A stretch of DNA of 64,000 nucleotides from Alphaproteobacteria bacterium (GTDB lineage: Bacteria; Pseudomonadota; Alphaproteobacteria; JAQWUY01). The notes below the pieces were generated by a model, which was not told the DNA's origin, made no database searches, and saw only the letters and a program-made list of their open reading frames with translations. The position numbers were made by a program, and so were the translations under genes. Shown here piece by piece: positions 5,398 through 14,493 of this stretch (its first letter is position 1; every line of letters begins with the position of its first letter). The stretch covers positions 87,705-151,704 of the forward strand of contig JAQWUY010000031.1 in NCBI GenBank assembly GCA_029250225.1. The letters are read 5' to 3'.

Positions 5398-5847
5398 CTA
5401 GTCTACTAATTCAGCTTCAGCAACATCTTCAAAACCAGCAGAAGCCTCAGTTACATCATTACTATCAGCAATGATATTAGAAATTTCTTTATAATCATTA
5501 TCATCAGAAGTTAATTCATTATCATCAGGTACTTCATTTAAAACTGTTGCAGTTTCAACTTCATCAGGTGCATCAACAGTTTTAACTTCTTGATAAGATC
5601 GAATTAAAGCCTCGTTTAAATCGTTAGGAGCAATTTTACCATCTGCAATTTCACGCAATGCTATTACTGTATTTTTGTCGTTATTTCGTTCCACAAGCTC
5701 AGGTGCACCACCTGAAATTTGTCTAGCACGATGTGCAACCATTAATACTAAGTCAAAACGGTTGTCTACTTTTTTATCACAATCTTCAACAGTAACGCGA
5801 GCCATAACTAAATCCTTTTTATAATTAATTATAGTTAATATTATCAA
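5398..5847 (-). CDS. rpoZ: DNA-directed RNA polymerase subunit omega with acidic C-terminal extension
   Basis: The N-terminus ARVTVEDC...[12 protein letters not shown] is the omega core. The protein sits upstream of rsh. The C-terminal 60 aa are D/E-rich. Confidence 0.8.
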
Positions 5848-5892
5848 CTAATATATAGTAAGTCAATATAACTAACACATTTTTAAAATAAA

Positions 5893-6387
5893 TCAATGAT
5901 TAAAATTTTTAAATGTTCTTTGTTTGTTAATTTTCCATTCACGATCTTTTATACTATCTCGTTTATCAACATTTCTTTTGCCTCGGCCAATGCCTAGCAA
6001 CAACTTAACTAACCCCTTTTGATTGAAATACAATTTTAACGGGATTGCACTAAGGCCATCTTTTGAAATTTTAGATATTATTTTGTTAATTTCACGACGA
6101 TGTAAAAGTAATTTTCTTGGACGATTTTCTTTGTGAACTGATATTTTAGCATTATTTTTATATTCACTAATATGTAAATTAACTATTTCAAGTTCATTGT
6201 TTTCAGTAAATTGAGCGTGAGCATCGTCTAGTTTAACGCTACTTGTTCTTAATGACTTAACCTCACTACCTGAAAGGCATATGCCAGCTTCATAGGTTTC
6301 AATTATTTCATAATCGAATTTTGCTCTACGGTTATTAGCTATAATCTTTTCATTATCATTTTTATCATTAGATTTTTTTTTAGTCAT
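5893..6387 (-). CDS. smpB: SsrA-binding protein
   Basis: The 164-aa product carries the SmpB fold signature KIIANNRRAKFDYEI...GSEVKSL and ends in a basic tail. Confidence 0.9.
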   Translation of the reverse strand: MTKKKSNDKNDNEKIIANNRRAKFDYEIIETYEAGICLSGSEVKSLRTSSVKLDDAHAQFTENNELEIVNLHISEYKNNAKISVHKENRPRKLLLHRREINKIISKISKDGLSAIPLKLYFNQKGLVKLLLGIGRGKRNVDKRDSIKDREWKINKQRTFKNFNH

Positions 6388-6402
6388 AGTAACAAATTAT
6401 TC

Positions 6403-7293
6403 TTATATTAATTTAAGGTCACTTAGTATTTTATCAATTTTACTTTTTGTTTCATCAGATAATTGAACTAGCGGTAAGCGAACTTGCGGTGAATTTATAA
6501 TACCTAGCTTAAACATAGCATATTTTGCAGGTGATGGATTTGGTTCAGCAAACAATATATCGTGCAAAGGCATTAACTTTTGTTGTAATTGTTCAAATTC
6601 TTTCATCTGATTATTTAATGCATAATTATGTAATTCAGCCATTTGTTTTGGTATAACATTCGATGTTACAGATATTGTGCCAATAGAACCATTTGCATAA
6701 AAATCTGAATATAAACCATCATCGCCACACAAACTTATAAAATCATCATTTACAGCCTGTGATAATTCTTTGGTGAATTGTGGATCTCCGGTAGCATCTT
6801 TGACACCAATAAAAGCATCTGGTAAATCTTTTGTTAATCTAGCTATTGTTTCAACTTCCATTTTTACAACTGAACGCCCCGGTATATTGTAAATTATAAT
6901 AGGAATATCAACTTCTTGTGCTATTTCTTTAAAGTGTTGATACATACCTTCTTGATTTGGTTTGTTATAATAAGGCACTACAATTAAAGCTGCATCAACA
7001 CCTGCGTGTTTAGCATAAGTCGTAAGTTCAATAGCTTCACGAGTACTATTTGAGCCAGTTCCAGCAATAATTGGTAATTTACCTGATGCAAGGCTTATGG
7101 CCATATCAATTACTTGTTTATGTTCTGAATGTGAAAGTGTCGGACTTTCCCCAGTTGTTCCCATAGGTACAAGGCCGTGTGTTCCACTCTTGATATGCAT
7201 ATCTATCATTTTTTCAAAACTATTTTTGTCAAATTCACGATTGTCTAGCATTGGGGTTATTAACGCAGGTATTGAACCTTGTATTTTTACCAT
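6403..7293 (-). CDS. dapA: 4-hydroxy-tetrahydrodipicolinate synthase
   Basis: The 296-aa product has a DapA-like N-terminus (GSIPALITPM) and a GTTGE motif. Confidence 0.9.
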   Translation of the reverse strand: MVKIQGSIPALITPMLDNREFDKNSFEKMIDMHIKSGTHGLVPMGTTGESPTLSHSEHKQVIDMAISLASGKLPIIAGTGSNSTREAIELTTYAKHAGVDAALIVVPYYNKPNQEGMYQHFKEIAQEVDIPIIIYNIPGRSVVKMEVETIARLTKDLPDAFIGVKDATGDPQFTKELSQAVNDDFISLCGDDGLYSDFYANGSIGTISVTSNVIPKQMAELHNYALNNQMKEFEQLQQKLMPLHDILFAEPNPSPAKYAMFKLGIINSPQVRLPLVQLSDETKSKIDKILSDLKLI

Positions 7294-7447
7294 TAGAATT
7301 ACCTTTTCTTATTGTTGCTTTTAATAATTCATTATATTATAATCCTATATATTAAAAAAAACAAGCATTATAGGCTAAGAATTACAATAATAATTTAAGT
7401 TATTATTGATAAAATTACAAAATGACCAAGGCATAAACAATAAAGAT

Positions 7448-8449
7448 ATGAAACACTGTAAGAACAAAATTAAAAAAAACAAAACTGGTATTTTAATTGT
7501 AAATCTTGGAACTCCTGATTCACCGACAACGAAAGGAATTAAGGTTTACTTGAAGGAATTTTTGTCAGATGAAAGAGTAATTGAAACAAACAAATTTATT
7601 TGGCAAATAATCCTTAGGTTATTTATATTACCTTTTCGTTCGCCAAAGGTAGCAAAATCATATGCTAGCATCTGGGATAGAGATAAAAATGAAAGCCCTT
7701 TACTTGTTAATACCCGTAATCAAGCTGAAAAAATGCAAGCAAAATTGGGAATACCAACATATTTTGCTATGAGGTATGGTAATCCATCAATTGATAGTGT
7801 TATGCAAAAAATGAACGACGATGGAATTAAAGAAATACTTGTAATCCCATTATATCCACAATATTCATCAGCAACAACAGCAACAGTAGTTGATAAGGTT
7901 AATGAATGCCTTGGAAAAATGCGTCGCCAACCAACTATTCGCTATGCAAGGCCTTATTTTCAAAATAAAAAATATATAGAAGCATTAAATAATTCTATTA
8001 ATAATCACTTGCAAGATATTGATTTTAAACCAGAAAAAATAATATTAAGTTATCACGGCATACCTCGTCGATATCATAAAAAAGGTGATCCATATCCTTG
8101 TCATTGTAAAAAAACATCTAGACTACTTACACAGATATCACCACTTAACAAAGATATTTTTATAACAACTTTTCAGTCGATTTTTGGCAAACAAGAATGG
8201 GTAAAGCCATATACAAATGCAACATTAATTAAACTTGGGAAATCAGGTGTTAAAAATATATCAATAATAGCCCCTGCTTTTGCTAGTGATTGCCTTGAAA
8301 CCCTTGAAGAGATATGCGAAGAGTTAAAGGACGATTTTATAAATGCTGGGGGTGAAAATTTTTCTTATATACCTTGTCTTAATGATAGCGATGAAAGTAT
8401 CGATATGTTGTGTGATATTGCAAAAAATGAATTAAAAGGCTGGATATAA
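7448..8449 (+). CDS. hemH: Ferrochelatase
   Basis: The track ORF starts at a TTG at 7406. The first ATG, at 7448, gives MKHCKNKIKKNKTGILIVNLGTPDSP, the conserved ferrochelatase N-terminus. The product has the expected length and motifs (LYPQYS). Confidence 0.85.
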   Translation: MKHCKNKIKKNKTGILIVNLGTPDSPTTKGIKVYLKEFLSDERVIETNKFIWQIILRLFILPFRSPKVAKSYASIWDRDKNESPLLVNTRNQAEKMQAKLGIPTYFAMRYGNPSIDSVMQKMNDDGIKEILVIPLYPQYSSATTATVVDKVNECLGKMRRQPTIRYARPYFQNKKYIEALNNSINNHLQDIDFKPEKIILSYHGIPRRYHKKGDPYPCHCKKTSRLLTQISPLNKDIFITTFQSIFGKQEWVKPYTNATLIKLGKSGVKNISIIAPAFASDCLETLEEICEELKDDFINAGGENFSYIPCLNDSDESIDMLCDIAKNELKGWI

Positions 8450-9944: not shown

Positions 9945-10019
9945 GTCTCCTTCGTCTAGCGGTTAGGACGCCGCCCTTTCACGGCGGAAACAGGGGTTCA
10001 ATTCCCCTAGGAGATGCCA
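9945..10019 (+). tRNA. tRNA-Glu (anticodon UUC), CCA encoded
   Basis: Manual cloverleaf. Acceptor stem GTCTCCT/AGGAGAT, D-stem GTCT/GGAC, anticodon stem CCGCC/GGCGG with loop CTTTCAC (anticodon TTC), T-stem AGGGG/CCCCT with loop TTCAATT, discriminator G, then CCA. Total 75 nt. Confidence 0.9.
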
Positions 10020-10025
10020 ATGTTA

Positions 10026-10054
10026 AAAACACCCCGTTTCGGGGTGTTTTTTTT
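10026..10054. terminator. Bidirectional rho-independent terminator (CACCCCG-TTT-CGGGGTG flanked by A-run and T-run)
   Basis: A GC-rich 7-bp stem, then T8 on the plus strand after the tRNA. AAAAA before it gives a U-tract for the minus-strand orf104 transcript. Confidence 0.65.
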
Positions 10055-10076: not shown

Positions 10077-10129
10077 AAAACATAAATGATGCCTTAGCAA
10101 TCAATTATATTGATTTAAAAGCATATTTG
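10077..10129 (-). repeat. Direct repeat copy A: promoter/5'-end module of the T5orf172-family gene (about 53 bp, 93% identical to copy B)
   Basis: Copy A reads aaaacataaatgatgccttagcaatcaattatatTGatttaaaagcatatTtg. Copy B (10522-10574) reads ...atatCAatttaaaagcatatCtg. On the minus strand copy A carries TATAAT, an AAGG SD and the remnant codons GIIYV, then diverges. Confidence 0.8.
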
Positions 10130-10444
10130 CTATAATGGTCTACTTGACAAATCTGCTATTTTTATATCTCCTTGTGAGGTTTCTTTGTAAGTGATTAATG
10201 CAATTATTCTATTTTCTCTAAGTTTTTCTAAATTATCTTTAAGATAATTTTCTATGAGTGGTTTTATTTTCTCAAATATATCTTTTGAGTTTTCTTTTTG
10301 CCATGATTCTTGTTCTATATAATCACTTGCTATATTTAAATCTATATCTCTATTGAAAATTTTACCATCTTCTTCTACTTTAAAACTAATTGCAACACCA
10401 TCATTATCTCTTTCTAGTTCTTTTATAAATTCTATTTTAATCAT
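10130..10444 (-). CDS. Hypothetical acidic protein (104 aa), orphan
   Basis: The ATG at 10444 is preceded by AAGGAG with a 7-nt spacer. An open frame of 104 codons is unlikely by chance in 30%-GC DNA. The product is rich in D/E, with no motif I recognise. It sits exactly between repeat copies A and B. Confidence 0.55.
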   Translation of the reverse strand: MIKIEFIKELERDNDGVAISFKVEEDGKIFNRDIDLNIASDYIEQESWQKENSKDIFEKIKPLIENYLKDNLEKLRENRIIALITYKETSQGDIKIADLSSRPL

Positions 10445-10493: not shown

Positions 10494-10574
10494 AATCCTA
10501 TCTGGCATAGAAAGATTTGTCAAAACATAAATGATGCCTTAGCAATCAATTATATCAATTTAAAAGCATATCTG
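10494..10574 (-). pseudogene. Direct repeat copy B: promoter (extended -10 TGATATAAT) plus 5'-terminal 17-codon remnant of a T5orf172 paralogue
   Basis: On the minus strand the sequence reads TTGATATAATTGATTGCTAAGGCATCATTTATGTTTTGACAAATCTTTCTATGCCAGATAGGATT. It encodes (stop)-GIIYVLTNLSMPDR and then diverges. It is about 90% identical to 11227-11277, the real gene start, which encodes MSKGIIYVLTNPSMPDW. The start codon is lost, ATG becoming GAT. Confidence 0.75.
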
Positions 10575-10644: not shown

Positions 10645-11280
10645 TTATTCTGATTCTAGTCTTATTCTCATACGATGTAAATTAACTTCATCACCAACTC
10701 TCCAATAGCTGGCTGGCTGAAAAGATTTCCAATTATAACCTAATTCATTTAATACTATCGATGTTGCATCTTTAAACTTCATTTTTTTATCTCTGAAAGA
10801 TAAAATATTTTTTTTGTTATCTAGAATTTTTGCTGTTATTGATTCATCTTTTGTAAATTTTATTTCATCACCAACATTAAGGCCGACAATGGAAAAATGA
10901 AACCTTTCCCTTTGTTTATTCTTTTTTTCCTGTTCTTTTATTTCTTTTACGGTTTCTTGGTCTATATTTGTTTTTAATTCAACAACTTCACCATCATAAC
11001 TATCTATAAGCTTGACAACCTGATCTAGGCAATCTTTTTTTATAAATTCTTTTGAGCCTGCTTTTAAGCCAAGACTACCATATGCATCAAAAACTGCACT
11101 TTCTTTTTTCTTACAATCATTAACCTCTTTGGCATAATAAAAATCAAAAGGAAGGGGAACACCTGTTGGCCTTGATAACTCTTTTATTCTTTTATTAACA
11201 TCTGCTCTTTTTGTAATTCCTACTTTAATCCAATCTGGCATAGAAGGATTTGTTAAAACATAAATGATGCCTTTGCTCAT
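10645..11280 (-). CDS. Stand-alone GIY-YIG-like (T5orf172/MUG113-type) domain protein with a DUF4357-like C-terminal module
   Basis: The 211-aa product has the N-terminus GIIYVLTNPSMPDWIKVGIT...NKRIKELS...GVPLPFDFYYAKEV, matching the T5orf172 pattern GxxYVLxNxxxPxxxKVGxTxxxxxxRxxxL...GVPxPF. The C-terminal 80 aa (FHFSIVGLNVGDEIKF...ATSIVLNELGYNWKSFQPASYWRVGDEVNLHRMR) resemble the small module commonly fused to T5orf172. It starts 6 bp after the gatB stop, on the same strand. Confidence 0.7.
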   Translation of the reverse strand: MSKGIIYVLTNPSMPDWIKVGITKRADVNKRIKELSRPTGVPLPFDFYYAKEVNDCKKKESAVFDAYGSLGLKAGSKEFIKKDCLDQVVKLIDSYDGEVVELKTNIDQETVKEIKEQEKKNKQRERFHFSIVGLNVGDEIKFTKDESITAKILDNKKNILSFRDKKMKFKDATSIVLNELGYNWKSFQPASYWRVGDEVNLHRMRIRLESE

Positions 11281-11286
11281 TAGAAC

Positions 11287-12741
11287 CTACTTCAATTTTT
11301 GTGCTAGTAGTTTATTAACCATAGCGGGATTAGCTTTGCCGGCTGTTTTTTGCATAACTTGACCAACGAACCACCCTATTAGTTTCGGGTTTTCTTTGAC
11401 TTTTGCTACTTGATTTGGGTTTTCAGTGATTACAGTATCAATAATGCCTTCAATTGCACCAGTATCTGTAATTTGCTTTAATCCCTTTTCCTCGACAATA
11501 ACAGCGGGTTTTTTACTAGTTTTAAACATATCAGCAAAAACTTCTTTGGCAATTTTACCTGAAATAGTATTATCTTCTATCAAGCTAATTAATTCGGCTA
11601 GGTCTTGTGCTTTTACAGGGCAATCATTTATATCTAGCTCTGCTTTTTTTAATGCACCGAATAATTCAGAAACAACCCAGTTAGCTGCTAGTTTTTTGTT
11701 TTTAACACCGCTTGCTACTTTTTCAAAATATGAGGCATTTTTTTTGTTTGCAACCAAAACAGCACCATCATAACTAGATAATCCGAATTCATTAATAAAT
11801 CTTTCTTTCTTCGTATCTGGTAATTCAGGCAAACTATCTTTACATTCATTGATAAATTCATCATCAATAACCACTGGTAATAAATCAGGGTCTGGGAAAT
11901 ATCTATAATCGTGAGCATCTTCTTTGCTACGCATTGTACGAGTTTCGCCTTTTTCAGCATCAAAGAGTCTTGTTTCTTGGTCAATTACTCCGCCATTTTC
12001 AAGAATTTCAACCTGACGAGTAGCTTCAACCATTATAGCTTGCTTGATAAATCTTACAGAGTTAATATTTTTGCACTCAGTCCTTGTTCCTAAGTTTTTA
12101 TCACCAACACGACGAACAGAAACATTTACATCAGCACGCATTGAACCCCTTGCCATAATACCATCACAAGAATCAATATATTGTACAATTGTTTGTATTT
12201 TTGTGAAGTAAGCTCCGGCTTCTTCTGCTGAGCGAATATCGGGATTTGATACAATTTCCATCAATCCAACTCCTGAACGGTTTAAATCAATAAATGATTT
12301 TTCTGGGTGTTGGTCGTGAATTGATTTACCCGCATCTTGTTCAATATGTAATCTTTCAATACCTATTTCTTTTGTTGTGCCATCTTGTAAGTCAATTGTA
12401 ACGACACCCTCACCAACTGTTGGTTGGTCTGCTTGTGAAATCTGATAACCTTGTGGTAAATCTGCATAAAAATAGTTTTTACGAGCAAATACGGATTTTT
12501 TATTGATTTTAGCACCTAGTGCTAATCCAGTTCTTACAGCTTGCCTTACACATTCTTTATTAACCACTGGCAACATACCTGGAAAAGCTGAATCTACAAA
12601 ACTTACATTTTCGTTTGGTTGTGCACCAAATGATGCAGGTGAACAAGACATTAATTTTGATTGTGAAATAATTTGTGCGTGGACTTCCAATCCAATTACC
12701 ATTTCCCAATCACCTGTTGTTCCTTTTATTATAGCAGTCAT
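11287..12741 (-). CDS. gatB: Glu-tRNA(Gln)/Asp-tRNA(Asn) amidotransferase subunit B
   Basis: The 484-aa product has the GatB N-terminus [13 protein letters not shown] and a YqeY-like C-terminus. Confidence 0.95.
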
Positions 12742-12754
12742 TGTTAATTATTCC

Positions 12755-14206
12755 TTATATATTTGGTGTTGCATCAAATTTTGCTTGCTTTTCTAGGGCA
12801 TAGCTTGCTTTTAAAACAGTTTCTTCATCGAATGCTTTACCTATTATTTGTAATCCCAGAGGTAAGCCACTATCACTAAGTCCAACCGGCACAGACATTC
12901 CAGGTAAACCAGCCATATTTAAAGTTACACTAAATACATCATTTAAATACATTTTTACCGGATCTTCTTGATTTTCACCAATTTTAAAGGCCGGACTTGG
13001 TGTAATTGGTGTTAATAATGCATCAACAGATTCAAACGCTTTTTTAAAGTCATTTGCAACCAAGCGACGAACCTTTTGTGCTTTAATATAATAAGCATCA
13101 TAAAAACCAGCCGACAATACATAAGTACCCATTAATATACGGCGTTTTACTTCCTCGCCAAAACCTTCTGATCTTGTAAGTTCGTACATTTCATCTAATT
13201 CTTTGCCACTAACTCTATGGCCGTAACGAACTCCGTCGTATCTTGATAAGTTACTAGATGCTTCTGCACAAGCTATTATATAATATGCAGGTAAGGCATA
13301 TTTTGTATGTGGTAGTGAAACATCTACAATTTCAGCCCCAGCTTCGACAAGCATTTTTTTACCATTATCCCATATTTTAGCAATTTCTTGTGGCATATCA
13401 TCAATATAATATTCCTTTGGAATACCTATTTTTAGCCCTTTTACATCGCCTGTTAATACAGCTTCAAAATCTGGCACTGGAATATTTGCCGATGTAGAAT
13501 CTTTTTCATCGTGTCCAGACATATTGGATAACATAATAGCACAATCACGCACATCTTTACCTATCGGCCCGACTTGGTCAAGACTTGATGCATAAGCAAC
13601 AACTCCCCAACGAGAACAGCGCCCATAAGTTGGACGAATTCCAGCAACACCACAAAAAGCCGAAGGTTGACGAATTGAACCACCAGTATCAGTTCCTGTA
13701 CTAGCAATAGCAGATCTTGCCGAAACAGCACAAGCCGAACCACTAGAAGAACCACCAGCAACTAAGTCATTTCCCCAAGGGTTTTTTGTTCCACCGTAAA
13801 ATGAGCTTTGTCCATTTGAACCCATTGCAAATTGATCTAAGTTTAATTTACCTAATGATATACAGCCACTTTCAGCAAGTTTTTGTGATACAGTTGATTC
13901 ATAATCTGGTGTAAAATTATCGAGCATTTTTGAACCTGCTGTTGTTTTTACGCCTTTTGTACATAATAAATCTTTGTGTGCAATTGGCATACCTTCCATA
14001 GGTCGCATATTACCACTAGCGATATTATTATCGGCAATTTTTGCCTGAGATAATGCATTATCGGTTGTTTTTGTAATATAAGCATTAAGATTATCAGTTT
14101 TTTCCATTTGATTTATATATGATGTTGTTAATTCAACAGCACTAAAATCTTTGTTCTTTAACCCAGTTGTTGCCTGAGATATTGTAAGTTTAGTTAAATC
14201 AGTCAT
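12755..14206 (-). CDS. gatA: Glu-tRNA(Gln) amidotransferase subunit A
   Basis: The 483-aa product carries the amidase signature GGSSSGSA. Confidence 0.95.
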
Positions 14207-14493
14207 TATTCCACCACCTTCGGAACGGTAAAGAAGTTCATAGTATCATCGGTTGCATTATTTACAATAGTTTCAGGATAACCACCGTCTTTTATTTCGT
14301 CATTGCGTAAAACCTGAACTCCATCAAGTGGATTTGCCATAGGTTCAACATTATCTGTATTTAATTCATTTAATTGTTCCATAAAACCTAGAACTTTTTG
14401 AATATCATTTGTGTATTGTTCAAGTTGTTTATCATCGATACGAATACGAGATAATTTAGCTACTTTTTTAACATCATCATTACTGAAAGACAT
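14206..14493 (-). CDS. gatC: Glu-tRNA(Gln) amidotransferase subunit C
   Basis: The 95-aa product starts [17 protein letters not shown]. Its stop overlaps the gatA start in an ATGA arrangement. Confidence 0.9.

Follow-up and report, generated by a model that had tools for sequence, protein, structure and literature searches.

A T5orf172-RAMA gene behind gatCAB in an uncultured marine alphaproteobacterium: a candidate stand-alone defence-type endonuclease

The stretch of DNA analysed here, 64,000 nucleotides (nt) of contig JAQWUY010000031.1 from an alphaproteobacterium and called the window below, has a G+C content of 30% and carries closely packed housekeeping genes. Among these, the list of open reading frames (ORFs) of the 64-kb window contains an uninterrupted ORF of 211 codons that lies directly behind the gatCAB operon and on the same strand. 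It encodes a two-domain protein, in which an N-terminal T5orf172 nuclease domain of the GIY-YIG superfamily is joined by a helical linker to a C-terminal domain with a modelled RAMA fold, and which matches PDC-S57, a family of candidate anti-phage nucleases, over its full length. Besides gatCAB, the neighbours of the gene are a tRNA-Glu gene, an aldo-keto reductase gene and a ferrochelatase gene, and the Pfam domains GatC, Amidase and GatB are annotated on contigs of the same species. An initial annotation of this DNA, made from the sequence alone, had described an intact reading frame 3' of gatCAB, and both the ORF and its coordinates proved to be real. The positions of all features are collected in Table 1.

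Table 1. Features of the gatCAB to tRNA-Glu region of the window (AF2, AlphaFold2; dN/dS, ratio of non-synonymous to synonymous substitution rates)
Feature	Position	Strand	Basis
T5orf172-RAMA gene, intact, stop codon included	10645..11280	-	ORF; Pfam; PADLOC; AF2 model; dN/dS
T5orf172 (GIY-YIG superfamily) nuclease domain, N-terminal, residues 1-100	10981..11280	-	
Helical linker, charged, Lys/Glu-rich, residues 101-124	10909..10980	-	AF2 helix 108-122
C-terminal domain with modelled RAMA fold, putatively DNA-binding, residues 125-211	10648..10908	-	
6-nt spacer GTTCTA, from the gatB stop codon (TAG) to the ATG of the gene	11281..11286	-	sequence
gatC-gatA-gatB operon, directly upstream, same strand as the nuclease gene	11287..14493	-	ORFs
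gatB	11287..12741	-	
gatA	12755..14206	-	
gatC	14206..14493	-	
Stub B: 31-nt promoter-like segment and about 50 nt from codons 2-18 of the gene, then a stop	10494..10574	-	repeats; BLAST
104-residue acidic ORF, strain-variable, within the 445-nt cassette	10130..10444	-	
Stub C: same 31-nt segment and 22 nt of the 5' end of the gene	10077..10129	-	repeat D2
Putative terminator hairpin, bidirectional	10025..10051	.	sole minus-strand terminator-like site downstream of gatB
tRNA-Glu(UUC), conserved right-hand border of the variable region	9945..10019	+	Rfam; same border in L019

Pfam assigns residues 4-92 to T5orf172 (PF10544, GIY-YIG clan; E 2e-12, 48 bits against a cut-off of 20) and, more weakly, to MUG113 (E 4e-6), so that the T5orf172/MUG113 call of the initial annotation is upheld by both matches. 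T5orf172 is likewise matched by all 33 homologues that were aligned. Moreover, the PADLOC model PDLC05041 of PDC-S57 covers residues 2-208 with its positions 4-206 of 212 at E 2.9e-49, and a second PDC-S57 model, PDLC05043, matches at E 1.5e-33; no family model of NCBIfam matches the protein. An exhaustive profile search returned 954 clusters (50% identity) at E<=1e-30, most of them of about 200-215 residues. The protein belongs to a widespread and already known family of candidate anti-phage nucleases and does not represent a new kind of system. Some representatives (P0051, P0052, P0053, P0088, P0155) are longer, with 400-980 residues and three to five matched stretches, which suggests that either the whole unit or the RAMA domain was duplicated in tandem. 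The AF2 model of the whole protein has a mean predicted local distance difference test score (pLDDT) of 82. In this model the N-terminal domain adopts a GIY-YIG-superfamily fold, which consists of a three-stranded sheet with flanking helices and can be superposed on solved GIY-YIG domains, and the linker helix (residues 108-122, pLDDT 62-77) coincides with the least conserved stretch of the alignment of the 33 homologues. Sequence searches against the chains of the PDB, performed with the full-length profile as well as with a profile of the C-terminal domain, returned nothing meaningful.

The catalytic set of GIY-YIG nucleases comprises the Tyr of the GIY motif, the Tyr of the YIG motif, an Arg and a His or Tyr on helix 1, a metal-binding Glu, and an Asn. 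Residue conservation was read from an alignment of the window protein with 108 representatives of distinct 50%-identity clusters, in which Tyr7, Lys19, Gly21, Arg31, Glu60, and Glu78 are conserved in 107-108 sequences; all six are kept in the window protein. The second Tyr of the canonical pair is replaced by a lysine family-wide (Lys19 here), and the helix-1 His/Tyr position (35) is a Leu in the window protein, as has likewise been reported for the nuclease Odn (PMC8263062). The topology of the model favours Glu60, which is located on the helix after strand 3, as the probable equivalent of Glu75 of I-TevI. Whether the nuclease residues are retained, which the initial annotation had asked, thus has a divided answer: among the invariant residues, Tyr, Lys, Arg, and the two Glu are present, but two near-invariant residues are exchanged, His64 (99/108) for Phe and Arg71 (106/108) for Gly. 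Furthermore, the Asn73 that is frequent in the family is a Lys in the window protein, and Arg77 and Phe80 are conservatively replaced by Lys and Ile, respectively. The exchanges at positions 64, 71, 77, and 80 are also found in P0002, the relative with 68% identity.

For the C-terminal module, the identification as DUF4357 (PF14267), which the initial annotation had suggested, had to be abandoned: searched by themselves, the last 109 residues match nothing in Pfam at E<=10, and none of the 33 homologues matches DUF4357 at E<=1. The module is RAMA-like instead. Seven of the 33 homologues match RAMA (PF18755) on their C-terminal region, all of them below the cut-off and the best with 26.4 bits against 35.2 (E 6.8e-6, residues 127-201); the window protein itself gives no match to this Pfam family. 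The modelled domain, which is basic (pI 9.6), superposes on both solved RAMA domains, those of CcrM and MPND. According to the model, the C-terminal domain has the RAMA fold, yet it stands outside the RAMA family by the threshold of Pfam. The RAMA domains of CcrM and MPND, the only ones solved, contact the DNA backbone and display no base specificity (PMC9963953). Within this domain, codons 167-168 encode Met-Lys in the window allele and Ile-Gly in all nine other alleles examined from the species (L001-L006, L179, and the P0001 cluster), a difference that consists of four clustered nucleotide changes.

The gene is intact in all ten alleles of the species, each on its own contig and always at the same site. 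The dN/dS of the whole gene is 0.15-0.32 within the species and 0.19 in comparison with the 68%-identical homologue, and by part it is 0.11 for the nuclease domain and 0.23-0.26 for the remainder, with 0.26 for the linker; the gene is under purifying selection. The initial annotation had argued for selection for function from the intact frame and from the tight coupling to an essential operon. The conclusion is borne out by the dN/dS values and by the ten alleles, which are free of premature stops, whereas the argument from coupling fails: co-oriented gaps in the window have a median of 6 nt (26 of 45 are <=10 nt), and therefore the 6-nt gap to gatB is uninformative about selection. The only RNA element that Rfam detects in the region is the tRNA. 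Downstream of gatB, the nuclease gene comes before the first terminator-like site. This site is a hairpin with a perfect 12-bp palindrome between an A-run and a T-run right after tRNA-Glu, and judged by its sequence it can end both the tRNA transcript and the converging gatCAB-T5orf172 transcript.

According to gatB, the host belongs to the uncultured marine Alphaproteobacteria, with the best species representative 84% identical at the protein level. The G+C content at third codon positions (GC3) of the nuclease gene is 0.18, the same as that of its neighbours, and therefore the gene is not a recent arrival. In the representative with the 84% identical gatB (L019), the order gatB, tRNA-Glu, aldo-keto reductase is the same, but neither the T5orf172 gene nor a stub of it is present, and the interval between gatB and the tRNA gene comprises only 184 nt with two terminator hairpins. 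Therefore, the gene is either an accessory insertion in the lineage of the window or was lost in L019. A second relative (L020, an alphaproteobacterial chromosome with gatB 79%; 5534-8230) carries downstream of gatB first luxS, then a 30%-identical family member, and then a gene for an Eco57I-type N6-adenine methylase. T5orf172-RAMA-type genes therefore seem to have landed repeatedly behind gatB. The other 78 gatB loci contain no family member, and local BLAST finds no second full copy of the gene in the window.

The 68%-identical homologue (L007 3-1383, a TARA Oceans contig) lies 4 nt past the stop codon of lepA (EF4), and thus also directly behind a conserved gene, but at another locus. All remaining homologues are at most 38% identical. 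Of these, one overlaps DeoC by 1 nt and has an aldehyde dehydrogenase on its other side, others come behind PEPCK or behind a small ORF adjoining LptD, and one is found beside a HigB/helix-turn-helix pair. Contexts were surveyed for 91 different loci with full-length family members, drawn from metagenomes and IMG/VR. In 58 of 68 cases the gene upstream has the same orientation, and among 59 co-oriented gaps 27 measure <=30 nt. The directly adjoining genes, 142 in all, form a mixed set that includes four PD-(D/E)XK nucleases, three ResIII/HsdR proteins (two of them HsdR) and single methylases, the rest being housekeeping genes. A DNA methylase gene is found within three genes in at least four of the 91 loci, a lower bound given that a motif filter followed by Pfam was applied to short contigs; in the other 87 loci this filter found none. 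The methylases near homologues are of the EcoRI, D12, and Eco57I types; in one locus (L195) the EcoRI-type methylase gene is the next gene to the family member. A copy on a Sphingomonas plasmid adjoins a complete BsuBI/PstI restriction-modification (R-M) system. The initial annotation had pointed to the neighbourhoods of homologues as a place to look for R-M or defence genes, and some homologues indeed lie beside R-M genes, but most of them lie beside housekeeping genes, as in the window, where a motif scan of the 64 kb yielded no DNA methylase candidate. Among 50,697 phage isolates only matches to the N-terminal domain are found, with no record covering 80% of the protein; full-length copies are present on about 20 IMG/VR contigs.

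We propose, with a probability of roughly 0.45 and thus tentatively, that the gene encodes a stand-alone two-domain T5orf172-RAMA endonuclease of the PDC-S57 type, which acts like a self-sparing or type IV defence enzyme. Defence and a selfish element were the two possibilities raised by the initial annotation, and they turned out to be the correct pair of candidates. In the proposed mechanism the RAMA domain would bind double-stranded DNA, chiefly via the backbone, might read adenine methylation or another modification, and would place the tethered T5orf172 nuclease to cut close by. The target would be incoming phage or plasmid DNA, restricted either in a type IV, that is modification-dependent, or in an otherwise self-sparing manner, for which a cognate methylase would be unnecessary. 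Since the hairpin behind tRNA-Glu is the sole terminator-like site downstream of gatB, the gene is probably co-transcribed with gatCAB, which would lead to low constitutive expression. With Phe and Gly in place of His64 and Arg71, catalysis may have become weaker or different in this lineage.

We favour a role in defence because of the PDC-S57 match and because of the link of RAMA to R-M systems: T5orf172 has been listed among the RAMA-fused nuclease domains in R-M contexts, and RAMA was proposed to discriminate N6-methyladenine (6mA) (Iyer et al., PMC4738411). The occasional R-M neighbours and the mainly methylase-free, cellular distribution of the family point in the same direction, and a precedent is set by type IV enzymes that combine a reader domain with a GIY-YIG nuclease. 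Helbrecht et al. showed winged-helix-GIY-YIG fusions to be Dam-dependent type IV enzymes and named GIY-YIG-RAMA fusions as future candidates, likely type IV analogues (PMC11037411). The architecture at the locus corresponds to this type, with a stand-alone nuclease, a putative reader domain, and no candidate for a cognate methylase nearby in the motif scan.

Several points weigh against a defence enzyme. Both in the window and in most contexts examined, housekeeping genes adjoin the gene where a defence island might be expected. Alphaproteobacteria normally methylate GANTC through CcrM, and therefore a general 6mA-dependent nuclease would attack its own genome. The replacement of His64 and Arg71 makes activity uncertain, the residues were mapped onto the canonical GIY-YIG catalytic set by motifs and topology, and a profile alignment with the catalytic domain of I-TevI is non-significant. 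Moreover, both the T5orf172-RAMA sub-family and PDC-S57 have the standing of candidates. Published results on the reading of 6mA by RAMA conflict, since a preference for 6mA was irreproducible in the structure study of MPND (PMC9963953).

Between the gene and the tRNA border the window contains a small variable cassette, which has to be considered as well. The initial annotation had spoken of eroded paralogue stubs nearby, and stubs B and C are indeed real and are copies of the 5' end of the gene. Stub B is 92-94% identical to the gene over 47-50 nt (BLAST E 7e-14, with 93.6% over 47 nt), stubs B and C share 94-96% identity and are spaced 445 nt apart (repeat D2), and no further copies of the 5' end of the gene are present in the window. 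Read in gene orientation, the 31-nt promoter-like segment precedes the T5orf172 5' end. In stub B the promoter-like sites TGAACA-18-TATAAT and TTGACA-17-TAGGAT are predicted, and the stub is followed by AAGGAG and then by an ORF for an acidic protein of 104 residues (pI 4.8). The unit of 445 nt is bounded by 53-nt direct repeats, and among contigs of the species it is present in the window, L006, L259, and L262 and absent from L001, L003, L004, and L005. The most plausible reading is that the stubs were left behind by a duplication of the 5' end of the nuclease gene and now serve as leader and recombination repeats of the cassette, and the unit was most simply gained or lost by recombination between the repeats. 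On L006 (3126-3183) a third stub copy, of the longer B type, follows the small ORF at the end of the contig, so that two or more units of the cassette may be arrayed in a row. An integron-like or att-site nature of the stubs was considered and rejected, as no integrase was found and only a single tRNA is present.

The 104-residue ORF has homologues in the same lineage only, with 79-100% identity. A homologue of the nuclease gene at the P0012 locus is also preceded by an ORF of 104 residues, but the two ORFs are dissimilar and a shared partner gene was therefore dismissed. Between strains, 21.5 of 22 substitutions in the ORF are non-synonymous (21.5 non-synonymous against 0.5 synonymous differences), and its dN/dS values are about 10 and 3 in contrast to 0.05-0.32 for flanking genes. 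The excess of non-synonymous changes has a binomial P of 0.01-0.07, so that the diversifying pattern is suggestive. The indels are in-frame and the ORF stays open. A diversity-generating retroelement acting on the ORF was rejected, since no template repeat was seen and the changes are mostly G>A and C>T and not adenine-specific; the 54 long ORFs listed for the window, which were not run against Pfam, include no obvious reverse transcriptase candidate.

As an alternative to defence, the gene could be a free-standing selfish gene of the homing endonuclease type, whose product cuts gene-less genomes near the gatB-tRNA-Glu junction so that the gene is copied in by repair, and which persists by riding on an essential operon. 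In phages, among them ICP1-like and T5-like ones, T5orf172 genes act as homing endonuclease genes and cluster beside essential genes (PMC10448857), and the homologues follow conserved genes (gatB, lepA, DeoC, PEPCK) in the same orientation in many lineages. The empty site of L019 with identical flanks and the duplicated 5' fragments that adjoin the gene fit as well, although L019 is distant and all ten contigs of the species are occupied. However, there is no sign of recent mobility: each species has one site, the next relative, at no more than 68% identity, has its copy at another locus, and the GC3 is host-like. Furthermore, no full-length copy occurs among the phage isolates, short gaps are usual in this streamlined genome, and only one of 80 gatB loci from other species holds a family member, which is 30% identical. 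Homing also requires sequence specificity, and RAMA domains are not known to be sequence-specific. Overall, we regard this explanation as unlikely.

It is also conceivable, but quite improbable, that the protein is a domesticated or attenuated derivative, which has lost efficient cleavage and acts with a host function as a DNA-binding regulator, a nickase, or a repair accessory. This would account for the Phe and Gly at positions 64 and 71 both here and in the 68%-identical relative, in proteins whose N-terminal domain is nevertheless the most constrained part, and for a position among nothing but housekeeping genes, inside the probable gatCAB transcription unit. A precedent comes from the PLE satellite, whose CapR is a T5orf172 protein that was domesticated and works as a repressor. 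Against domestication stand the six retained invariant residues of the family, including both glutamates and the GIY Tyr, and the patchy distribution with absence from the closest relative, which argues against a core function; moreover, no regulatory target or operator was identified.

A far more speculative view, to which we assign very little likelihood, connects the gene with the cassette in a minimal conflict module, made up of a nuclease with a remodelled active site (Phe64, Gly71) and an array of strain-variable 104-residue ORFs. In such a module the nuclease could be hard-wired into the gatCAB transcript, while the ORFs could use a promoter and leader recycled from the 5' end of the nuclease gene. 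Their product could evolve fast and either modulate or inhibit the nuclease, or it could serve as a decoy against counter-defence of phages. Least probable of all is that the protein is the restriction subunit of a type II R-M system with its methylase elsewhere in the genome or lost, for even though RAMA was named for its R-M association (PMC4738411), the L020 homologue lies 30 nt upstream of the Eco57I-type methylase gene, and L195 has its EcoRI-type methylase next door, the window holds no methylase candidate in the motif scan, only four of the 91 loci have a methylase within three genes, the R-M system on the Sphingomonas plasmid possesses its own restriction enzyme, and an active orphan restriction enzyme would be lethal.

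Coming back to the stand-alone T5orf172-RAMA endonuclease as the preferred interpretation, the architecture is known and has been flagged twice in comparative-genomics papers, and the fusion is common, with about 950 clusters at 50% identity. The statement of the initial annotation that the family is functionally uncharacterised was therefore too strong: Odn, a T5orf172 nuclease of phage ICP1, is active and its activity is abolished by E180A (PMC8263062), the fusions have been noted in print, and the protein matches PDC-S57. PDC systems are candidates that were found as genes within BREX, DISARM, or type I R-M loci, and they are explicitly described as untested (bioRxiv 10.1101/2024.01.29.577857); we found no paper that mentions PDC-S57. 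The gene of the window does not open a new category but provides a small example, consisting of a single gene, from a marine alphaproteobacterium that is uncultured and has a streamlined genome. Its natural variants at two near-invariant nuclease positions offer a ready-made comparison for biochemistry, and it adds one more data point to the questions of what RAMA-nuclease fusions recognise and whether bacterial RAMA domains read methylation.

Among the known systems, PDC-S57 (at NCBI "GIY-YIG nuclease family protein") shares with the window protein the full-length match, the size of about 210 residues, and the two-domain layout. However, it was defined from genes inside defence systems, whereas the window copy lies among housekeeping genes behind gatCAB, and the family has His64 and Arg71 where the window copy has Phe64 and Gly71. 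The winged-helix-GIY-YIG type IV enzymes Ahi29725I and Apa233I are likewise small stand-alone proteins that combine a reader with a GIY-YIG nuclease, usually without an adjacent methylase. Their reader is a winged helix, whereas the window protein has a RAMA fold, carries the nuclease first, and belongs to the T5orf172 branch, and its dependence on a DNA modification is hypothetical. Odn (Gp88) of ICP1 and the T5orf172 homing endonucleases have in common with it the T5orf172 domain, in which Arg and Glu are conserved and the canonical His/Tyr of helix 1 is missing, and the ICP1 T5orf172 proteins also resemble it in the modular combination of a nuclease with a DNA-binding domain and in their sites beside essential genes. 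In contrast, these are phage genes, and their DNA-binding modules are RepA_N or zinc fingers of the CapR/DUF723 type, which are sequence-specific. Finally, the RAMA domains of CcrM (PDB 6PBD) and MPND (PDB 7YDT) are only 6-14% identical in sequence to the domain of the window protein, and the partner of RAMA is a methyltransferase or a deubiquitinase in these two proteins, respectively, whereas it is a nuclease in the protein encoded behind gatCAB.
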